This document shows positions 14,491 through 20,340 of a stretch of 32,000 nucleotides of DNA, piece by piece. How positions within the stretch are numbered: the first letter of the stretch is position 1; each line of letters opens with the position of its first letter. The notes under the pieces were generated by a model. It was not told the origin of the DNA, made no database searches, and was given only the letters and a program-made list of their open reading frames with translations. This DNA is from Eggerthellaceae bacterium (lineage in GTDB: Bacteria > Actinomycetota > Coriobacteriia > Coriobacteriales > Eggerthellaceae), in the NCBI GenBank assembly GCA_050951005.1, contig JBMNIP010000001.1, positions 96,102-128,101 on the forward strand, read 5' to 3'. The translations under genes and the position numbers were made by a program.

Positions 14491-14528
14491 TAATGAAGCC
14501 TGCGCCGGCCCGCATGCCGGCGAACTGT

Positions 14529-14585
14529 GAAGCGGGGTGGGCCTTGCTGGGCGCCACCCCGCTTCGCGACTTTGGGGTTTTCTGC
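14529..14585 (+). terminator. Terminator after serS
   Basis: A perfect 12-bp stem GAAGCGGGGTGG (14529..14540) / CCACCCCGCTTC (14554..14565) has a 13-nt loop. The T-rich stretch TTTGGGGTTTTCT begins 5 nt downstream. Confidence 0.65.
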
Positions 14586-14715
14586 GTTGAGAGCCCAATC
14601 GGGCTGTTCAGCGGGTATCCTAGCTACCGATGATAATCGGCATACGGCGGGAAGGTTCCCAGGCGGTGCCGAAGAGGACGATCCTGCAATTCGGGAAACA
14701 CGGGAAGGGGTGCCG

Positions 14716-16188
14716 ATGGCCGACAAGCAGCACAAGAAGCCGACGCGGCGCAAGCGCCCTTCGCGTGGGCAATCGGCGCCTGCTCCCGCACGCCGTGAGC
14801 GCAGGGAAGCATCCCGGCCATCCCGCCAGGCCGGCAAGGACCATGCTTCGGTATCTCCCGAACAAGCTGCGGCACCCCGTCCGTCGGTGAAGGACCGCTC
14901 TCGGAGAACGGGGCGGATGCCGTCTGCCCGGCGCGAAGAACGGATCGAGCGGAAAGCACAGGTTCCCCATCGCCGTCGATCCCAGGACGCTTCGGAATCG
15001 CAGGCGAAGGTGCAAGCTGCACCGCCTTCCAAGTCGGCGTCGGCAACCGTCCAATCGGAGAACGGGAATGCTGCACCAGCAGCCGTAGCGGCTTCTGCAC
15101 CTTCGGATGCTCCGAAGGCAAGGGCCGCAGCTCCTGCCGCCGATGCCGACGGCCGCCCTCTTAACGGCATGCCTTCGGCAGTAGAGGTGGAGATGCCGGT
15201 GCTGTCCGGCGGGTCCTCTTCTGAGACCTTATCGGCTTCCGCCGGCGAAAGAACGGAATCGGTTGCATCGTTTGCCGCTTCGGGCGATGAGGCGCCGAAA
15301 GACGTAGATACCGCTCCGGTGTCGGGTGAAAACAACGGCTCATCCGATGCGGACGCAACAGAGGACGCCGCATCAGTCGGCGATCAGGCTTCAGGAATCT
15401 CGACTGCAGACGCTTCTGCCCATGCGGAGGCTGCTTCGGCCCATGAGGTTCCCATCGAATCGGAGGCTGCGGAATACGGATCAGCTTCGGAGGCTGAGGG
15501 CTCTTCGGACCGCGCTGCGGAAGGGCAAGACGATGCGACGCCTTCCCGCCCGAGCGTGTCAGGAAGACGCAAAGCTGTTCCGAAGCCGGATTCGCAGAAG
15601 AAGCCATCCCGACCCGGCTTCCCGAAGATCGTCGACCATCGCAAACTCGATGCCATTCGCAGCAAGCGCATCCGGAAATCGGTGAAGATCTTGCTTGCCG
15701 TGGTTGCAGTCATTGTGATTGTTGTCGCCCTGTTTGCCTGGCAGCGGTGGTACCGTTTCGACGATACGCAGGATATCCAGGGTACCTGGCAGCTTGCCGC
15801 CGATACCAGCCAAACCGTGGTCATCGATGGCAGCAACATCGACATCGTCAAGGGTGTTGCCTACCAGTACACGCTGGATACCGCCGATAAGACCATCACC
15901 TTCACCTTCTCCGACAAGAGCGGCCAGGCTTCCTATCATTTCAGCGGCGACCGGAAGACCCTGGTGATCAACGAAAGCGACAGCCAACCGAACATCCTGG
16001 TCCAGCTGGGCATTGTCGATGATCCCGCCATCGCCGACGATACGCTCGACGACGAGGTCACGGTGCTATACAAGGTCTCTGACGACACGTCGACGCACTA
16101 CGGCAGCTCCAAGAAATCCAAGAAGGGAAAAACGGAGAGCTCTTCCTCTTCGGCTTCCTCAACCTCTTCTTCCCAGGGCAATGGCTGA
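14716..16188 (+). CDS. Hypothetical bitopic membrane protein: ~330-aa disordered cytoplasmic N-terminus, one TM helix, small extracytoplasmic beta-rich domain, Ser-rich tail
   Basis: I chose ATG 14716 (GGGAAGGGG RBS), because the ORF-track start 14527 would overlap the serS terminator. The N-terminus runs basic (MADKQHKKPTRRKRPSRG), then Ala/Ser/Glu/Asp-rich, then basic. TM helix: ILLAVVAVIVIVVALFAW. I recognise no family. Confidence 0.7.
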   Translation: MADKQHKKPTRRKRPSRGQSAPAPARRERREASRPSRQAGKDHASVSPEQAAAPRPSVKDRSRRTGRMPSARREERIERKAQVPHRRRSQDASESQAKVQAAPPSKSASATVQSENGNAAPAAVAASAPSDAPKARAAAPAADADGRPLNGMPSAVEVEMPVLSGGSSSETLSASAGERTESVASFAASGDEAPKDVDTAPVSGENNGSSDADATEDAASVGDQASGISTADASAHAEAASAHEVPIESEAAEYGSASEAEGSSDRAAEGQDDATPSRPSVSGRRKAVPKPDSQKKPSRPGFPKIVDHRKLDAIRSKRIRKSVKILLAVVAVIVIVVALFAWQRWYRFDDTQDIQGTWQLAADTSQTVVIDGSNIDIVKGVAYQYTLDTADKTITFTFSDKSGQASYHFSGDRKTLVINESDSQPNILVQLGIVDDPAIADDTLDDEVTVLYKVSDDTSTHYGSSKKSKKGKTESSSSSASSTSSSQGNG

Positions 16189-16597
16189 TCCTCGGTTACC
16201 GCAGCGCATACGCATTCGCTCCCTGACTGTTTCGAGCGACCGCATCCTGGCAACCGTGCAGGTGGATCCGCAGCACCCGAACAGCACGCCTGCCATGGCG
16301 GCAGCCCTTGTGCAGGCCTTTCCCGACCTGCCCCGCCATGCCTGCGTCAATCCGAAGGGTGATTTCTTCGGCGATGTGATTGCCGGCACCTCGCTTCCGC
16401 ACGTGCTCGAGCATCTGGTCATCGATCTCCAAACGCAGGAGCATGCGGCAATCGACCCCGATTACGTTTTTACCGGGGTGACCCGGTGGGCGGACAAGGC
16501 GCAGGGAGTAGCGACCGTAGAGGTTTCTTATCGTGATGATTTGGTGGCGTTACGGGCATTTCGTGATGCTGCCGTGTACCTGAATAGCTTGCGGTAA
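16181..16597 (+). CDS. Small protein resembling the cyanophycin-synthetase N-terminal domain (stand-alone, 138 aa)
   Basis: ATG 16181 overlaps the upstream stop (ATGGCTGA). By manual comparison with the CphA N-domain, LVQAFPDLPRHACV resembles LIKVLPSLVEHFCS, GTSLPHVLEHLVIDLQ resembles GTYMGHIVEHVALELQ, and the C-terminal strand plus helix (VATVEVSYRDDLVALRAFRDAAVYL) resembles IYNVVFEYVDEQAGRYAGRAAVRL. Confidence 0.7.
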   Translation: MADPRLPQRIRIRSLTVSSDRILATVQVDPQHPNSTPAMAAALVQAFPDLPRHACVNPKGDFFGDVIAGTSLPHVLEHLVIDLQTQEHAAIDPDYVFTGVTRWADKAQGVATVEVSYRDDLVALRAFRDAAVYLNSLR

Positions 16598-16713
16598 GGT
16601 GAATTCATCCGAAAAGGCCGACGGGGTTTCCCGATGTGCCCAGGTGTTCGCACATCTCCCCGCTGGTCCCGAACGTGCCGCGCGAACGCGGCGCATGACA
16701 GGTAGGAGCAGCA

Positions 16714-17667
16714 ATGAAGGTTGCCGTACTGATGGGCGGAGCAGCTGCTACGCGTGAGCGGAGCCTGCGTAGCGGGAAGAACGTATGCAAGGCGTTGGCT
16801 GCCTCGGGGCACACGGTGCTGCCGTTGGATACCACGGTCAATCTCACCACCATTCTGTGCAACGAACATCCCGACATCGTATTCAATGCGCTGTACGGAT
16901 ACGAAGCAGAATGCGGTGCGGTCCAGGAGCTCCTGGAATTCTTGGACATTCCCTTTGTGGGCGCTTCGTCGTCCGTTTGCCGTGATGCATGCAACCGCGG
17001 TGCGCTGCCCAGTGTGCTGGAGGGTTATCAAGGCGCCCTCGGCGGTTCGATGACGGCTGCATGGCCTCACGGAATCGTCCTCTCGCGGATGGCGGTACAG
17101 GATATGGGCGCCTATTCCGCGCTCAACTTGGTGGCTGACAGGATTCCGGGCGGTTACCCGCTGTGCGTGAAATCGGTTCATGGCATGCCGGGTTTCGCAG
17201 CTTACCGGGTTGAAGATCACGATGAGCTTGCGGGCGCGCTGATCCAGGTACTCGCAGTGGACGATTCGGTGGTTATCCAGCAGTGGGTCGAAGGAATCAA
17301 CCTTTCTGCGTTCGTGCTGGGTTCTGGATACGAGGCGCTGGTTCTTCCGCCGGTGGAAATCGACCAGCAAGATGGTGAGCTCTACACGCCGGTTCGCCTT
17401 GAGTCGCTTGCACAGGATCAGGAGAATGCGCAGGCCATCCGCTCGGAGATAGAACGGGCGGCTATGGAGGCATATCTGGCATTCGGCATCCGGGATATCG
17501 GGCGTGTGGATTTGATCTGGGATGGTGCCCAGGCACGGATCCTGCGGGTACGGACCGTGGTGGATTACAGTGCGGATTCGCCGTTCCATCAAGCGCTGGC
17601 GGCAGCTTCGCTTACGTTCGAGGGCGTGGCCAATGCGCTGGTCGGAGGTCTGTCTCCGGAAGAGTGA
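16714..17667 (+). CDS. D-alanine--D-alanine ligase-like ATP-grasp protein with diverged active-site motifs
   Basis: The N-terminus MKVAVLMGGAAATRERSLRSGKNV...VFNALYG...LLEFLDIPFVGAS is clearly Ddl-like. The regions matching the ATP/Mg2+ motifs are substituted (see finding). GGTAGGAG RBS is present. Confidence 0.85.
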   Translation: MKVAVLMGGAAATRERSLRSGKNVCKALAASGHTVLPLDTTVNLTTILCNEHPDIVFNALYGYEAECGAVQELLEFLDIPFVGASSSVCRDACNRGALPSVLEGYQGALGGSMTAAWPHGIVLSRMAVQDMGAYSALNLVADRIPGGYPLCVKSVHGMPGFAAYRVEDHDELAGALIQVLAVDDSVVIQQWVEGINLSAFVLGSGYEALVLPPVEIDQQDGELYTPVRLESLAQDQENAQAIRSEIERAAMEAYLAFGIRDIGRVDLIWDGAQARILRVRTVVDYSADSPFHQALAAASLTFEGVANALVGGLSPEE

Positions 17668-17718
17668 TTACGGGCAGATGACCGTTGCAAACACGCAGGT
17701 GAAATGGTTCCCGCACGG

Positions 17719-17724
17719 TATAAT
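17719..17724 (+). promoter_or_regulatory. Perfect -10 hexamer TATAAT upstream of the ytxH-like gene
   Basis: TATAAT at 17719..17724 lies about 80 nt upstream of ATG 17803. There is no good -35. The stem-loop AAAGCGC-GACAG-GCGCTTT lies in the putative 5' UTR. Confidence 0.35.
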
Positions 17725-17802
17725 GCGACGTACGAGTGGTTATTGGCGGTTAAGGACGGGGCAAAGCGCGACAGGCGCTTTCACCGTGATAAGGAGGAAG
17801 CA

Positions 17803-18315
17803 ATGGGAAAATTCGGAGCTTTTGTTCTGGGCGGTATCGTCGGTGCGACAGCTGCACTGCTGACGGCGCCACGTCCCGGCGATGAGACGCGCGCGATCGT
17901 CACCGACTGGTGCAACAACACATTCAACGATGCAAACAACATTGCCGCCGGTGTGCAGGACCGCGCACGTCAGGCAGTTGACACCGCCGCGACGGCGGGC
18001 CAGCAGGCTTACAGCACGGCCTCTTCGCGCGTGCAGGAAGTCGGCAAGACCGTGGTCGGAGCCAATGCGGAAAGCAGCGATGAGCTGCGTGCCAAGATAG
18101 AGGAAGCACGTCAGCGCATTGCATCCCAGGTCGTGCAGAACGCCGATGGTGCCCGTCAGGCAATAAACGACACCATCCCGACGGTGACCGAGGCCATGAA
18201 GGCCAACGCCGAACGCGTACAGGAAGAGATGGGCCATGTGCCTGCCCATGCGCAGGATCCGGTCGACATCGAGGATGCACAGATTGAAGAGCCCGTCGAT
18301 GAGGATCGGCAGTAA
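17803..18315 (+). CDS. YtxH-domain protein
   Basis: AAGGAGG RBS precedes the start. The N-terminus MGKFGAFVLGGIVGATAALLTAPRPGDETR is the typical YtxH membrane-anchor motif. It is followed by an Ala/Gln/Glu-rich helical region. Confidence 0.8.
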   Translation: MGKFGAFVLGGIVGATAALLTAPRPGDETRAIVTDWCNNTFNDANNIAAGVQDRARQAVDTAATAGQQAYSTASSRVQEVGKTVVGANAESSDELRAKIEEARQRIASQVVQNADGARQAINDTIPTVTEAMKANAERVQEEMGHVPAHAQDPVDIEDAQIEEPVDEDRQ

Positions 18316-18360: not shown

Positions 18361-19290
18361 ATGCTCACGGTTAGCCAGTTGATGAATGACAAGGTAATCG
18401 TGCCGCGCGGACGCAAGCAGAAAGAGCGGCGCATAGGAAAAGTGCGCCGCTTCGTGTTCCACCCGCGCGAGAAGCGTTGCATCGGCTTCATCATCAAGCG
18501 CCCCGATGCGGCGCTGATGTTCAAGCGCAAGGACCTGTTCGTCGCGTTGGACCGCATCAAGATCATCGATGACGAGATCCACGTCGACGGTGCCGAGGAC
18601 TCCATGGGAGGCCGGGCGGTCAAGCGCCTGGGCGTGAAGTGGGAAGAATGCGTGCTGTGGATGGGCATGCAGGTGGTTGCCGAGAACGGAGAAATCCTGG
18701 GAACGGTCGGCGATGTCGCCTTCGACGGGAAAACCGGACGCGTGGATTCCATCGAGTTGGACAACGGCGCCACGGCACGAGCCCTGTTGGGCAAAGCTAC
18801 CGTCCCTGCCAGCTACATCAAGGGCTTCCGTTTCGGGGTTGGCTCGCGGCTATCGGGGTATCAGGACGAAGTGGCCGATGACGAGGATGATGAAGACGCC
18901 GAGGAGCTGGAAGAGGAGGACCTCGGTGCCATCCTCGTTTCGAATGAGGCATTGGCGCTCGAGCCTGAGGGCGGCCTGGCCGAAAAGGCGGGCAGGGCAA
19001 GCGTTGTTGCCAAGGTAAAGGGCCGCGAAGCGGTAGAGAAGGCCAAGGTTGTGGGCGCCGATGTGGCCGAGAAGGCCCGCGCAAAGACGGCCGAGTCTGC
19101 TGCCAAGGCAAAAGACCAGGTCGAAGATGCAAAACCTCAGATGAAGGAGACGGGCAAGAAGGCAGAAGAGGCGCTAAACAAGGGTGCGTATTTCACTGGC
19201 GTCCAGATTGCCAAGTCCAAGAAGATGTTCGCCGGCTTCATGGACAACTACCGTAAAGCTGTAAATGGCGAAGATGAGGATGATAACTGA
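18361..19290 (+). CDS. PRC-barrel domain protein (two PRC-like segments) with acidic linker and Lys/Ala-rich helical C-terminus
   Basis: PRC-like segments: VSQLMNDKVIVPRGRKQKERRIGKVRRFVFHP and VLWMGMQVVAENGEILGTVGDVAFDGKTGRVDSIEL. They are followed by DEVADDEDDEDAEELEEED and an AEKA/AKAK-rich tail. Confidence 0.8.
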   Translation: MLTVSQLMNDKVIVPRGRKQKERRIGKVRRFVFHPREKRCIGFIIKRPDAALMFKRKDLFVALDRIKIIDDEIHVDGAEDSMGGRAVKRLGVKWEECVLWMGMQVVAENGEILGTVGDVAFDGKTGRVDSIELDNGATARALLGKATVPASYIKGFRFGVGSRLSGYQDEVADDEDDEDAEELEEEDLGAILVSNEALALEPEGGLAEKAGRASVVAKVKGREAVEKAKVVGADVAEKARAKTAESAAKAKDQVEDAKPQMKETGKKAEEALNKGAYFTGVQIAKSKKMFAGFMDNYRKAVNGEDEDDN

Positions 19291-19293
19291 TCT

Positions 19294-20340
19294 ATGCCCT
19301 CCGCCGATTCCTCCCACCATTCTGAAGAAGAGTCCGATCATCCGAATATGTCATCGGTATCCGAAGGGTCCGATGCATCAGACCAACGCGCGCCTTCTCC
19401 AATGGCGGATTTCGAGCCAGATAGCCTGGATAGCGATTCGGCAAATGCCGGCTATCAGGTGAAGCCCGAGGTACCGGGCTCGGATGCCGAGGTGCGTGCG
19501 GAACGCCGCGCCCTCCGCGAGAATCTGAAAGAGCGCCGTGAGGATATAGCGGCGCACGACTATCGTTTTACCGAGAAATCCAAAGAACGCATAGCGCAGG
19601 AACCGCCTTCGCAGCTGCAACGGGGCGACCGGCAGGTTGGCAAGCGCGGTCTTACCGTTGCCGATATCGTCAAGCTTGTCGGGCTTCTTGCCGTGCTGGT
19701 GCTTCTCGCCCTTATCGTGTGGGCGATGTGGCCAACGCTCTCCGGCCTTTTCGAGGAGGGCGGCGTCGAGGCGCTGGTCGAAAAAGTGCAGAATGCGGGC
19801 CCGATGGGTGTTGCCATGCTGCTTGGTCTGCAACTGTTGCAGGTCATCGTTGCATTCATCCCCGGCGAGGTCGTGCAAGTCGCAGCGGGCATGATGTACG
19901 GTGCCTGGTGGGGCGGCCTCATCGTAACGGTGGGCGCCTGCCTGGCAAGCGCTGCAGTATATTCATTGGTCCATTGGCTGGGCGCGCCGTTTGTTCGCGA
20001 CATGGTCTCCGATTCGTTTTCGGACAGATTCCGGCGATTCGAGGCATCGGGTCATTTGGACACCATCGTGTTCATCCTGTTTCTGATTCCCGGCATGCCG
20101 AAGGATGTATTCACCTATGTGGTTGCATTGACGGACATGAAGCTGGGATCCTTCCTGATATTGACGACCTTTGCGCGCATGCCCGGCATTTTCCTGAGCA
20201 CCTATGCCGCGTCGAGCCTGGCAAATGGGGACATGACGAAGAGCATCGTGATCTTCGTCATCCTGGTGGTGCTTGCGCTGGTGTGCATCGTGCTGCGCGA
20301 CCGCATCATCGAGCGCCTTGACGGTTTCCGCCGGAAGTAG
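19294..20340 (+). CDS. TVP38/TMEM64 (DedA-related) family membrane protein with a ~120-aa disordered N-terminal extension
   Basis: Core motifs: LLGLQLLQVIVAFIPGEVVQVAAGMMYGAWWG and FILFLIPGMPKDVFTYVVALTDM. The start is 4 nt after the upstream stop. Confidence 0.85.
   Translation: MPSADSSHHSEEESDHPNMSSVSEGSDASDQRAPSPMADFEPDSLDSDSANAGYQVKPEVPGSDAEVRAERRALRENLKERREDIAAHDYRFTEKSKERIAQEPPSQLQRGDRQVGKRGLTVADIVKLVGLLAVLVLLALIVWAMWPTLSGLFEEGGVEALVEKVQNAGPMGVAMLLGLQLLQVIVAFIPGEVVQVAAGMMYGAWWGGLIVTVGACLASAAVYSLVHWLGAPFVRDMVSDSFSDRFRRFEASGHLDTIVFILFLIPGMPKDVFTYVVALTDMKLGSFLILTTFARMPGIFLSTYAASSLANGDMTKSIVIFVILVVLALVCIVLRDRIIERLDGFRRK

Follow-up and report, generated by a model that had tools for sequence, protein, structure and literature searches.

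A Putative Pseudoenzyme Derived from D-Alanine–D-Alanine Ligase Is Encoded Next to a Predicted Free-Standing Cyanophycin Synthetase N-Domain-Type Hydrolase in Eggerthellaceae

Introduction

D-alanine–D-alanine ligase (Ddl) is an essential, drug-targeted enzyme, of interest in connection with D-cycloserine and with vancomycin resistance. Pseudoenzymes are found among proteins that share its ATP-grasp fold, the TTL-like domain of TTLL12 being an example (PMC3520985). In cyanophycin synthetase CphA1, the N-terminal domain is a cryptic Zn metallopeptidase with the motif Cx19HxxEH (C59, H79, E82, and H83), and three second-shell residues of the SuCphA1 domain, H57, F67, and E87, are needed for peptidase activity, as are the four residues of the motif (Sharon et al. 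2022, PMC9262961). The activity demonstrated for this domain is hydrolytic (PMC9262961). Here, we analyze a locus at which a small homologue of the CphA1 N domain, which we call cphN, lies just upstream of ddlL, a gene for a Ddl-family protein with a dismantled active site. The locus is part of a 32,000-nucleotide (nt) stretch of the 2.0-Mb genome of a gut Eggerthellaceae bacterium (GenBank assembly GCA_050951005.1, contig JBMNIP010000001.1, positions 96,102 to 128,101 of the forward strand), hereafter called the window.

A first-pass annotation, made from the sequence alone, had read the two genes as a split CphA-like arrangement. In the account that we favor and consider fairly probable, they are instead neighboring and separable genes, one coding for a cphN-type hydrolase and the other for a catalytically dead second Ddl paralog (Ddl2) that is still kept by selection.

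Results

The ddlL Product Is a Ddl-Family Protein That Has Lost Catalytic Residues

The features on which the argument turns are the following (coordinates are those of the window):

16181..16597, plus strand: cphN-like gene, 138 amino acids (aa), homologue of the CphA1 N domain (PF18921, AlphaFold2 (AF2) fold, metal-site motif)
16598..16713, no strand: 116-nt spacer; relatives have a ~1.3-kb class I/II aminotransferase gene here (synteny tables)
16714..17667, plus strand: ddlL, 317 aa, Ddl2 ortholog with a dismantled active site (Pfam, alignments, AF2, tree, dN/dS)

The product of ddlL matches both Pfam domains of Ddl above their gathering cut-offs (Dala_Dala_lig_N, 47.4 bits; Dala_Dala_lig_C, 41.9 bits), which agrees with the annotation of a Ddl-like ATP-grasp gene 116 nt downstream of cphN. 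It falls below the cut-offs of the NCBIfam Ddl models (NF002378, 115.2 bits, cut-off 243; TIGR01205, 87.6 bits, cut-off 245.65), and its score with PF07478 is 42.6 bits, against 184 bits for the canonical ddl of the same genome. The best 25 of its 32 NCBIfam matches and all 33 of its PDB matches are Ddl or Van ligases, with no CphA or cya_phycin_syn match among them. An AF2 model of the protein has a predicted local distance difference test score (pLDDT) of 92.7 and a predicted template modeling score (pTM) of 0.90, and Foldseek aligned it with Ddl structures at a template modeling (TM) score of 0.8 and an E-value of 2e-25.

To read the active-site residues of ddlL, its product was aligned, with HMMER and MAFFT, to Ddl structures and E. 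coli DdlB, whose numbering is used throughout, and the residue identities in the DdlB reference sequence were verified computationally. The roles of these residues in DdlB are well established by structural work and mutagenesis. Of the three Mg2+ ligands, D257 is retained, while E270 and N272 are both replaced with arginine (LLEANT to ILRVRT, nt 17539-17556). Among the five ATP contacts K97, K144, E180, E187, and K215, K144 alone is left; K97R, E180Q (IEKW to IQQW), and E187N are substitutions, and K215 is missing together with Y210 and Y216 because the omega-loop is deleted. The Ser-rich loop has changed from KPSREGSSVG to KSVHGMPGFA (S150P, S151G). As for the substrate residues, E15T, S150P, and H63Y are found in addition to the deletion of Y216, and R255 (in GRVD) and S281 are kept. 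Further changes are G276D and the loss of the PGMT motif. The conserved D257 could form a salt bridge with the adjacent R270 and R272, which would fill the empty metal site. Taken together, these losses suggest that the protein is catalytically dead.

The first-pass annotation had arrived at a part of this list by a manual alignment to DdlB, and had concluded that the Mg2+ and ATP ligands are lost. HMMER and MAFFT bore out both the conclusion and the individual readings (GRVD kept, E270 and N272 turned into Arg, S150 lost, IEKW read as IQQW, PEFTV read as INLSA, and no counterpart of the YEAKY loop), and E15T, H63Y, K97R, and G276D can now be added to them. A canonical ddl (ddl1), in which all of the residues discussed above are intact, was found ~45 kb upstream in the same contig. 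The possibility that ddlL is the sole ddl of the organism was therefore rejected.

ddlL Belongs to a Second Ddl Clade of Coriobacteriia Whose Constant Partner Is an Aminotransferase

Loci were compared in 40 Eggerthellaceae genomes and in 20 genomes of other Coriobacteriia families. Homologues of cphN and ddlL were found throughout Eggerthellaceae. Ancestrally, cphN is followed by a class I/II aminotransferase gene (product of ~430 aa), ddl, ytxH, and a PRC-barrel gene, in this order. Genomes of distant families contain two high-scoring ddl genes, one located elsewhere (187-196 bits) and one in the syntenic position (164-183 bits); the ancestral state in the class is two ddl genes per genome. 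An IQ-TREE maximum-likelihood tree of 66 sequences splits the Ddl1 clade from the Ddl2 clade at 100/100 support and places ddlL inside the Ddl2 of Eggerthellaceae. This gene is therefore a Ddl2 ortholog and not a relative of the CphA G domain. Its position between cphN and ytxH is the one occupied by Ddl2 in relatives.

In 29 of the 40 Eggerthellaceae loci, the aminotransferase gene lies next to Ddl2, and ~11 loci lack both, so that the aminotransferase is the constant partner of Ddl2. No such constancy ties Ddl2 to cphN: about one quarter of the sampled Eggerthellaceae loci and whole sister families have cphN without any Ddl2, and in two sister-family genomes (G285 and G226) the aminotransferase–Ddl2 pair is located far from cphN. 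All 29 aminotransferase-linked Eggerthellaceae Ddl2 proteins and all 11 Ddl2 proteins of environmental Coriobacteriia keep E15, S19, H63, E68, K97, K144, S150, R255, D257, E270, N/D272, G276, and S281. Ddl2 is currently annotated as "D-alanine--D-alanine ligase family protein" in Eggerthella, Gordonibacter, and Raoultibacter.

The omega-loop is non-canonical even in intact Ddl2. In environmental families (L023-L039), the residue at position 215 is Met in most families ("SAMY") and Arg in two of them; in Eggerthellaceae (L042, L058-L097), it is Arg, and Y216 is mostly replaced with Met, Leu, or Ile. Ddl1 has the canonical "KY". The non-canonical loop suggests that the substrate or kinetics of Ddl2 differ from those of a standard D-Ala-D-Ala ligase. 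At one locus with an intact Ddl2 (L036:5132-6386, genome G274), the adjacent aminotransferase gene consists of two abutting pieces in different frames, due to either a frameshift or a sequencing error.

These data bear directly on the idea that cphN and the ATP-grasp gene form a split CphA-like machine that polymerizes peptides without a Mur-ligase domain. The two genes are indeed adjacent in the window and belong to the same cluster across the class; yet they are separable, since cphN occurs without Ddl2 in ~11 of the 40 loci. Moreover, the ATP-grasp protein belongs to the Ddl family rather than to the CphA G domains, as the 100/100 support for its clade shows, an aminotransferase gene lies between the two genes ancestrally and in most relatives, and the aminotransferase–Ddl2 pair can reside away from cphN. 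The window ligase also lacks catalytic residues, and hydrolysis, not polymerization, is what has been demonstrated for the CphA1 N domain (PMC9262961). The split-CphA model, which we consider very improbable, was rejected on the grounds of family assignment, synteny, and co-occurrence.

The Aminotransferase and the Catalytic Residues Were Lost within One Genus

Ddl2 directly follows cphN, without an intervening aminotransferase gene, in the window, in genome G094, and in metagenomic contig L056. No ortholog of the aminotransferase was found in the window genome (G000), where the best match has 25% identity, and none was found at E <= 1e-20 in the genomes of five relatives (G045, G094, G131, G093, and G116), among which are genomes with an aminotransferase-less Ddl2 and two of the window's genus in which no Ddl2 was found. 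Relocation of the gene to another part of the genome was thus rejected. In G045, which belongs to the same genus as the window genome, Ddl2 has been lost as well, and only ddl1 is kept.

A part of the catalytic set is missing from every aminotransferase-less copy, and the residues lost differ from one lineage to another. The window protein, along with P0003 and P0004 as the sequences closest to it, has E15T, H63Y/C, K97R, E180Q, the omega-loop deletion, E270R, N272R, and G276D, and the R270/R272 state is limited to these three sequences. G094-like copies have R255C/T and D257N; R255Q, E270Q, and N272S/A are present in P0008-10, and R255C and N272V in G116, while G093 has mild changes only. Common to the whole genus clade are E180Q, the loss of H63, and the omega-loop deletion (with a variable low-complexity insert instead in P0008-10). 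The different losses in each lineage indicate that catalysis has no longer been under selection from the base of the genus onwards. Ligand loss is thus specific to the genus of the window and is not a property of the cphN–Ddl2 pair.

In the sister-family Ddl2 proteins encoded at L052:3605-4576 (G285) and L053:3953-4909 (G226), the substrate residues are all kept, and the metal ligands show E270G/D and N272K. N272K is a second, independent cationic replacement of a Mg2+ ligand, here with the aminotransferase gene still adjacent.

One may ask whether ddlL still encodes an enzyme, one with unusual chemistry in which the guanidinium groups of R270 and R272 replace two Mg2+ ions and neutralize the phosphates of ATP or an acyl-phosphate, while K144, R255, and D257 act on a new substrate. 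The identity of R270 and R272 in the three ligand-less sequences, despite a synonymous divergence (dS) of ~1, speaks for such chemistry, as do the retention of K144, R255, D257, and S281, the strong purifying selection on the gene (see below), and the independent N272K in aminotransferase-linked Ddl2. However, the same protein has no omega-loop lid with its K215, has a replaced Ser-rich loop (S150, S151), and is altered at E15, H63, K97, E180, and E187, and the sister aminotransferase-less lineages lost R255, D257, and E270 instead, as expected if catalysis had already gone in the common ancestor. We also know of no ATP-grasp enzyme that works without Mg2+, which weighs in the same direction. 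On balance, an enzyme with such chemistry appears unlikely.

The ddlL Gene Evolves under Purifying Selection

Selection was assessed from the ratio of nonsynonymous to synonymous divergence (dN/dS) by simple pairwise Nei–Gojobori comparisons, which were made at near-saturated dS. For ddlL, the ratio was 0.07 in comparison with P0003 (86% aa identity, dS 1.07), 0.17 with P0004, and 0.20 with G094, the overall range being 0.07-0.21 at dS 1.0-1.4. Pairs of catalytically intact Ddl2 genes gave 0.03-0.27, and neighboring genes 0.04-0.2. No copy shows an interruption of the 317-codon frame, the set comprising at least 10 diverged sequences with identities down to 60%. Of the 60 Ddl2-specific positions, i.e., those conserved in Eggerthellaceae Ddl2 and different from Ddl1, 38 are kept in the ligand-less clade, including helix 239-254. 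Among the pan-Ddl positions that the window protein no longer has are E15, H63, K97, S150, E180, E187, E270, and the GEDG and PGMT motifs. The low dN/dS values and the intact frames make a plain pseudogene unlikely and point to purifying selection on ddlL.

The same data have to be set against the view that ddlL is a functionless relic, decaying since the loss of the aminotransferase and not yet deleted. In its favor, ~11 of the 40 Eggerthellaceae loci lack Ddl2, as does G045 from the genus of the window, active-site losses differ between lineages, and branches that follow the aminotransferase loss are long (0.46 for the genus stem and 1.33 for G116). A decaying gene, though, would not be expected to have dN/dS values no higher than those of intact Ddl2 or of neighboring genes, an intact frame in every copy, a good ribosome-binding site, and a confident AF2 model. 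We consider the relic explanation improbable.

cphN Encodes a Predicted Free-Standing Metal-Dependent Hydrolase

The cphN product matches Pfam family PF18921 (Cyanophycin_syn N-terminal domain) with 47.8 bits, the gathering cut-off being 27, and sequence comparison with the PDB links it to CphA1 chains (7wac, 7lg5). Its AF2 model has a pLDDT of 95.4, and the best fold match in the PDB is the SuCphA1 N domain (7lgq_A, TM 0.68, root-mean-square deviation 2.8 A). The description of the 138-aa protein as a stand-alone relative of the CphA N domain thus held up. The next-best fold matches after CphA1 are weak ones to LuxS structures (TM ~0.25). LuxS is a small metalloenzyme with an HxxEH motif and a Cys ligand.

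The putative metal site of the protein consists of H53-A-C55 (nt 16337-16345) and H74-V-L-E77-H78 (nt 16400-16414). H53, C55, F63, H74, E77, H78, and D82 align with SuCphA1 H57, C59, F67, H79, E82, H83, and E87. The helix HVLEHLVIDLQ, whose resemblance to the CphA N domain had been noted in the first-pass annotation, does support that likeness; what had been missed is that its HVLEH part is the HxxEH of the metallopeptidase site (PMC9262961). The SuCphA1 residues R70, S60, and E90, which contact cyanophycin, align with V66, V56, and T85 and are not conserved. No CphA was found in the genome, in which the sole PF18921 match is the stand-alone cphN (a 209-aa open frame containing the 138-aa open reading frame (ORF)), fused to neither a G (ATP-grasp) nor an M (Mur-ligase) domain. 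With no CphA in the genome and no conservation at the positions that contact cyanophycin, the substrate of the protein would be something other than cyanophycin.

Each of 63 cphN copies from across Coriobacteriia has the HxC-x18-HxxEH motif (x19 in one copy), and of 201 genomes of the class, 192 have a PF18921 match, which invariably lies in a small frame. In a sample of 250 genomes of the phylum, PF18921 occurs outside of Coriobacteriia only in long open frames (mostly ~950-1300 aa), which are typical of full-length CphA. A profile built from the cphN alignment and run against 1.84 billion representatives gave 699 matches, which carry no taxonomy; the proteins behind the best 150 are without exception small (104-266 aa), which shows that there is a large family of stand-alone cphN-like proteins. 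Hence, cphN is a core gene found almost throughout the class, the active site of its product is intact, and this product is predicted to be an active, free-standing, metal-dependent hydrolase.

In two sister families (L029:7164-8018, L030:6977-7750, and L031:6901-7734), the cphN-like protein is 257-284 aa long due to a C-terminal extension of ~150 aa, which matched no Pfam family. At L029 and L031, the two of these loci at which the upstream gene was checked, a gene for a CNNM/CorC-type transporter, rather than for a bitopic membrane protein, is located 5' of cphN.

Locus Layout and Neighboring Genes

The remaining features of the cluster in the window are the following:

14527..16188, plus strand: frame of a bitopic membrane protein, 553 aa (ORF; translation probably starts at the ATG at 14716)
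17704..18315, plus strand: YtxH-like protein, downstream neighbor (PF12732, 52.7 bits; syntenic across the class)
18361..19290, plus strand: PRC-barrel domain protein, downstream neighbor (PF05239, 51.2 bits; syntenic across the class)
19294..20340, plus strand: VTT/DedA-type membrane protein, last gene of the Eggerthellaceae cluster (PF09335, 77.9 bits; syntenic within the family)

The upstream membrane protein has a long, basic, disordered N-terminus rich in Pro, Ala, and Ser, a single transmembrane helix, and a C-terminal domain of ~100 aa. It matched no Pfam family significantly, and the only matches were weak, lipocalin-like ones. Every one of the 40 Eggerthellaceae loci sampled retains its C-terminal part 5' of cphN (tblastn, 30-70% identity). 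As had been annotated, the 138-aa ORF overlaps this gene: the ATG of cphN at 16181 lies within ATGGCTGA, which gives an overlap of 8 nt with the stop of the 553-aa frame. At least 15 relatives likewise have an overlap, of 4 or 8 nt. The closest linkage of cphN is thus to the upstream membrane protein gene (4- or 8-nt overlaps at many loci) and also to ytxH and the PRC-barrel gene, while its linkage to Ddl2 is not tight. In Eggerthellaceae, serS and the membrane protein gene precede cphN, and the VTT/DedA gene stands at the 3' end of the cluster.

An AGGAG ribosome-binding site is located 7 nt 5' of the ddlL ATG. Scans with promoter and terminator consensus sequences revealed none within or between cphN and ddlL, and the overall number of matches did not exceed that expected from shuffled sequences. 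No remnant of an aminotransferase gene could be detected in the 116-nt spacer between the two genes, and as RNA the spacer folds no more stably than shuffled sequence does (z = 0.22). The spacer can be aligned between the window (16598-16713) and L056:5885-6000, the closest relative with a long contig, and contains GC-rich hairpins.

In environmental Coriobacteriia (L033:7966-11762, G210, and equivalents), a gene for a large UPF0182 membrane protein and an RlpA-like DPBB gene of the lytic transglycosylase type are found 5' of the cluster, and a GNAT gene and a gene with a YbaK-type tRNA-editing domain on its 3' side. This neighborhood supports a cell-envelope context. The cluster thus looks envelope-related, as the first-pass annotation had it.

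Discussion

The observations made here can be accommodated in the following scenario. The cphN product would be a small cytoplasmic metal-dependent hydrolase, with the metal bound by C55, H74, and H78 and E77 acting as the general base, and its synthesis would be translationally coupled to that of the bitopic membrane protein. Ddl2 is a second Ddl paralog of Coriobacteriia with the adjacent class I/II aminotransferase gene as its usual partner. In the genus of the window, the aminotransferase was lost, after which Ddl2 would have shed its catalytic apparatus, namely all Mg2+ ligands but one of three, the contacts to the nucleotide and its gamma-phosphate, the triad for D-Ala1, and the lid formed by the omega-loop. 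The Ddl fold has been kept, under purifying selection, ever since. The orthology of ddlL with Ddl2, the losses of the aminotransferase and of the active-site residues, and the purifying selection follow directly from the tree, the gene tables, the alignments, and the dN/dS values, whereas the death of catalysis and the kind of role retained are inferred. Judging from the alignments and the structural model, ddlL most likely encodes a pseudo-ligase that no longer catalyzes a reaction and is retained for another purpose, such as binding, scaffolding, or regulation.

Several points weigh against this interpretation. K144, R255, D257, and S281 are kept, and the arginines at positions 270 and 272 are identical in three sequences, so that the protein may still bind phosphate or a nucleotide or carry out a metal-independent reaction. 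The cationic replacement of a Mg2+ ligand in G285 and G226 may be compatible with function in those proteins. Many relatives, G045 from the genus of the window among them, do without Ddl2, which fits a gene that is being lost. Finally, the case for selection is built on a simple pairwise method applied to nearly saturated synonymous sites.

A more specific role can also be imagined. Dead Ddl2 could serve as a non-catalytic ligand sensor or regulator of the cphN hydrolase, of Ddl1, or of the membrane, YtxH, or PRC proteins; R270, R272, K144, and R255 would then contact a nucleotide, or a ligand that contains D-Ala, in a metal-free site. On a wider view, the genes for cphN, the aminotransferase, and Ddl2 could constitute a van-like three-gene module that remodels the peptide of peptidoglycan precursors in Coriobacteriia. 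In our estimate, this proposal has a rather small chance of being correct.

If ddlL does encode a pseudo-ligase, it would be a recent and datable pseudoenzyme derived from Ddl, one that shows how a bacterial pseudoenzyme arises after the loss of a pathway partner, and the active Ddl2 orthologs of sister genera would allow a direct comparison. The automatic label "D-alanine--D-alanine ligase" on genes of this kind inflates the apparent copy number of ddl in gut Eggerthellaceae. A free-standing CphA-N-type hydrolase that is core in Coriobacteriia would matter for the cell-envelope or peptide metabolism of a clinically relevant gut lineage.

A literature search for a Ddl-derived pseudoenzyme, for an aminotransferase-linked Ddl2 in Coriobacteriia, and for a free-standing CphA N domain returned nothing relevant, and no published description of a gene pair like the one in the window was found, in accord with the first-pass annotation.

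Compared with the SuCphA1 N domain (PDB 7LG5, 7LGJ, and 7LGQ), the cphN product has the same fold, the same Pfam family (PF18921), and the same C-H-H metal triad, general base, and second shell. It differs in being free-standing, in the spacing between Cys and His (18 rather than 19 residues), and in the lack of conservation of the residues that contact cyanophycin. The ddlL product shares the three-domain ATP-grasp fold with E. coli DdlB (PDB 2DLN/1IOV) and Y. pestis Ddl (4ZQI/5C1O), to which it aligns at the TM score and E-value given above, but its identity to Ddl is only 22-28%, and a separate canonical ddl is present in its genome. With the Ddl2 proteins of other Coriobacteriia it shares the same chromosomal slot and 38 of the 60 Ddl2-specific positions, and it differs from them by the missing aminotransferase gene and the lost catalytic residues. 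The TTL-like domain of TTLL12 (PMC3520985) likewise has an ATP-grasp fold, has lost its catalytic residues, and has been maintained in evolution; unlike it, ddlL is bacterial, derived from Ddl, and recent, having arisen within one genus after the loss of a partner gene. What is new in the window, relative to all of these systems, is the combination of a genus-specific aminotransferase loss, a dismantled Ddl2 active site, and continued purifying selection.

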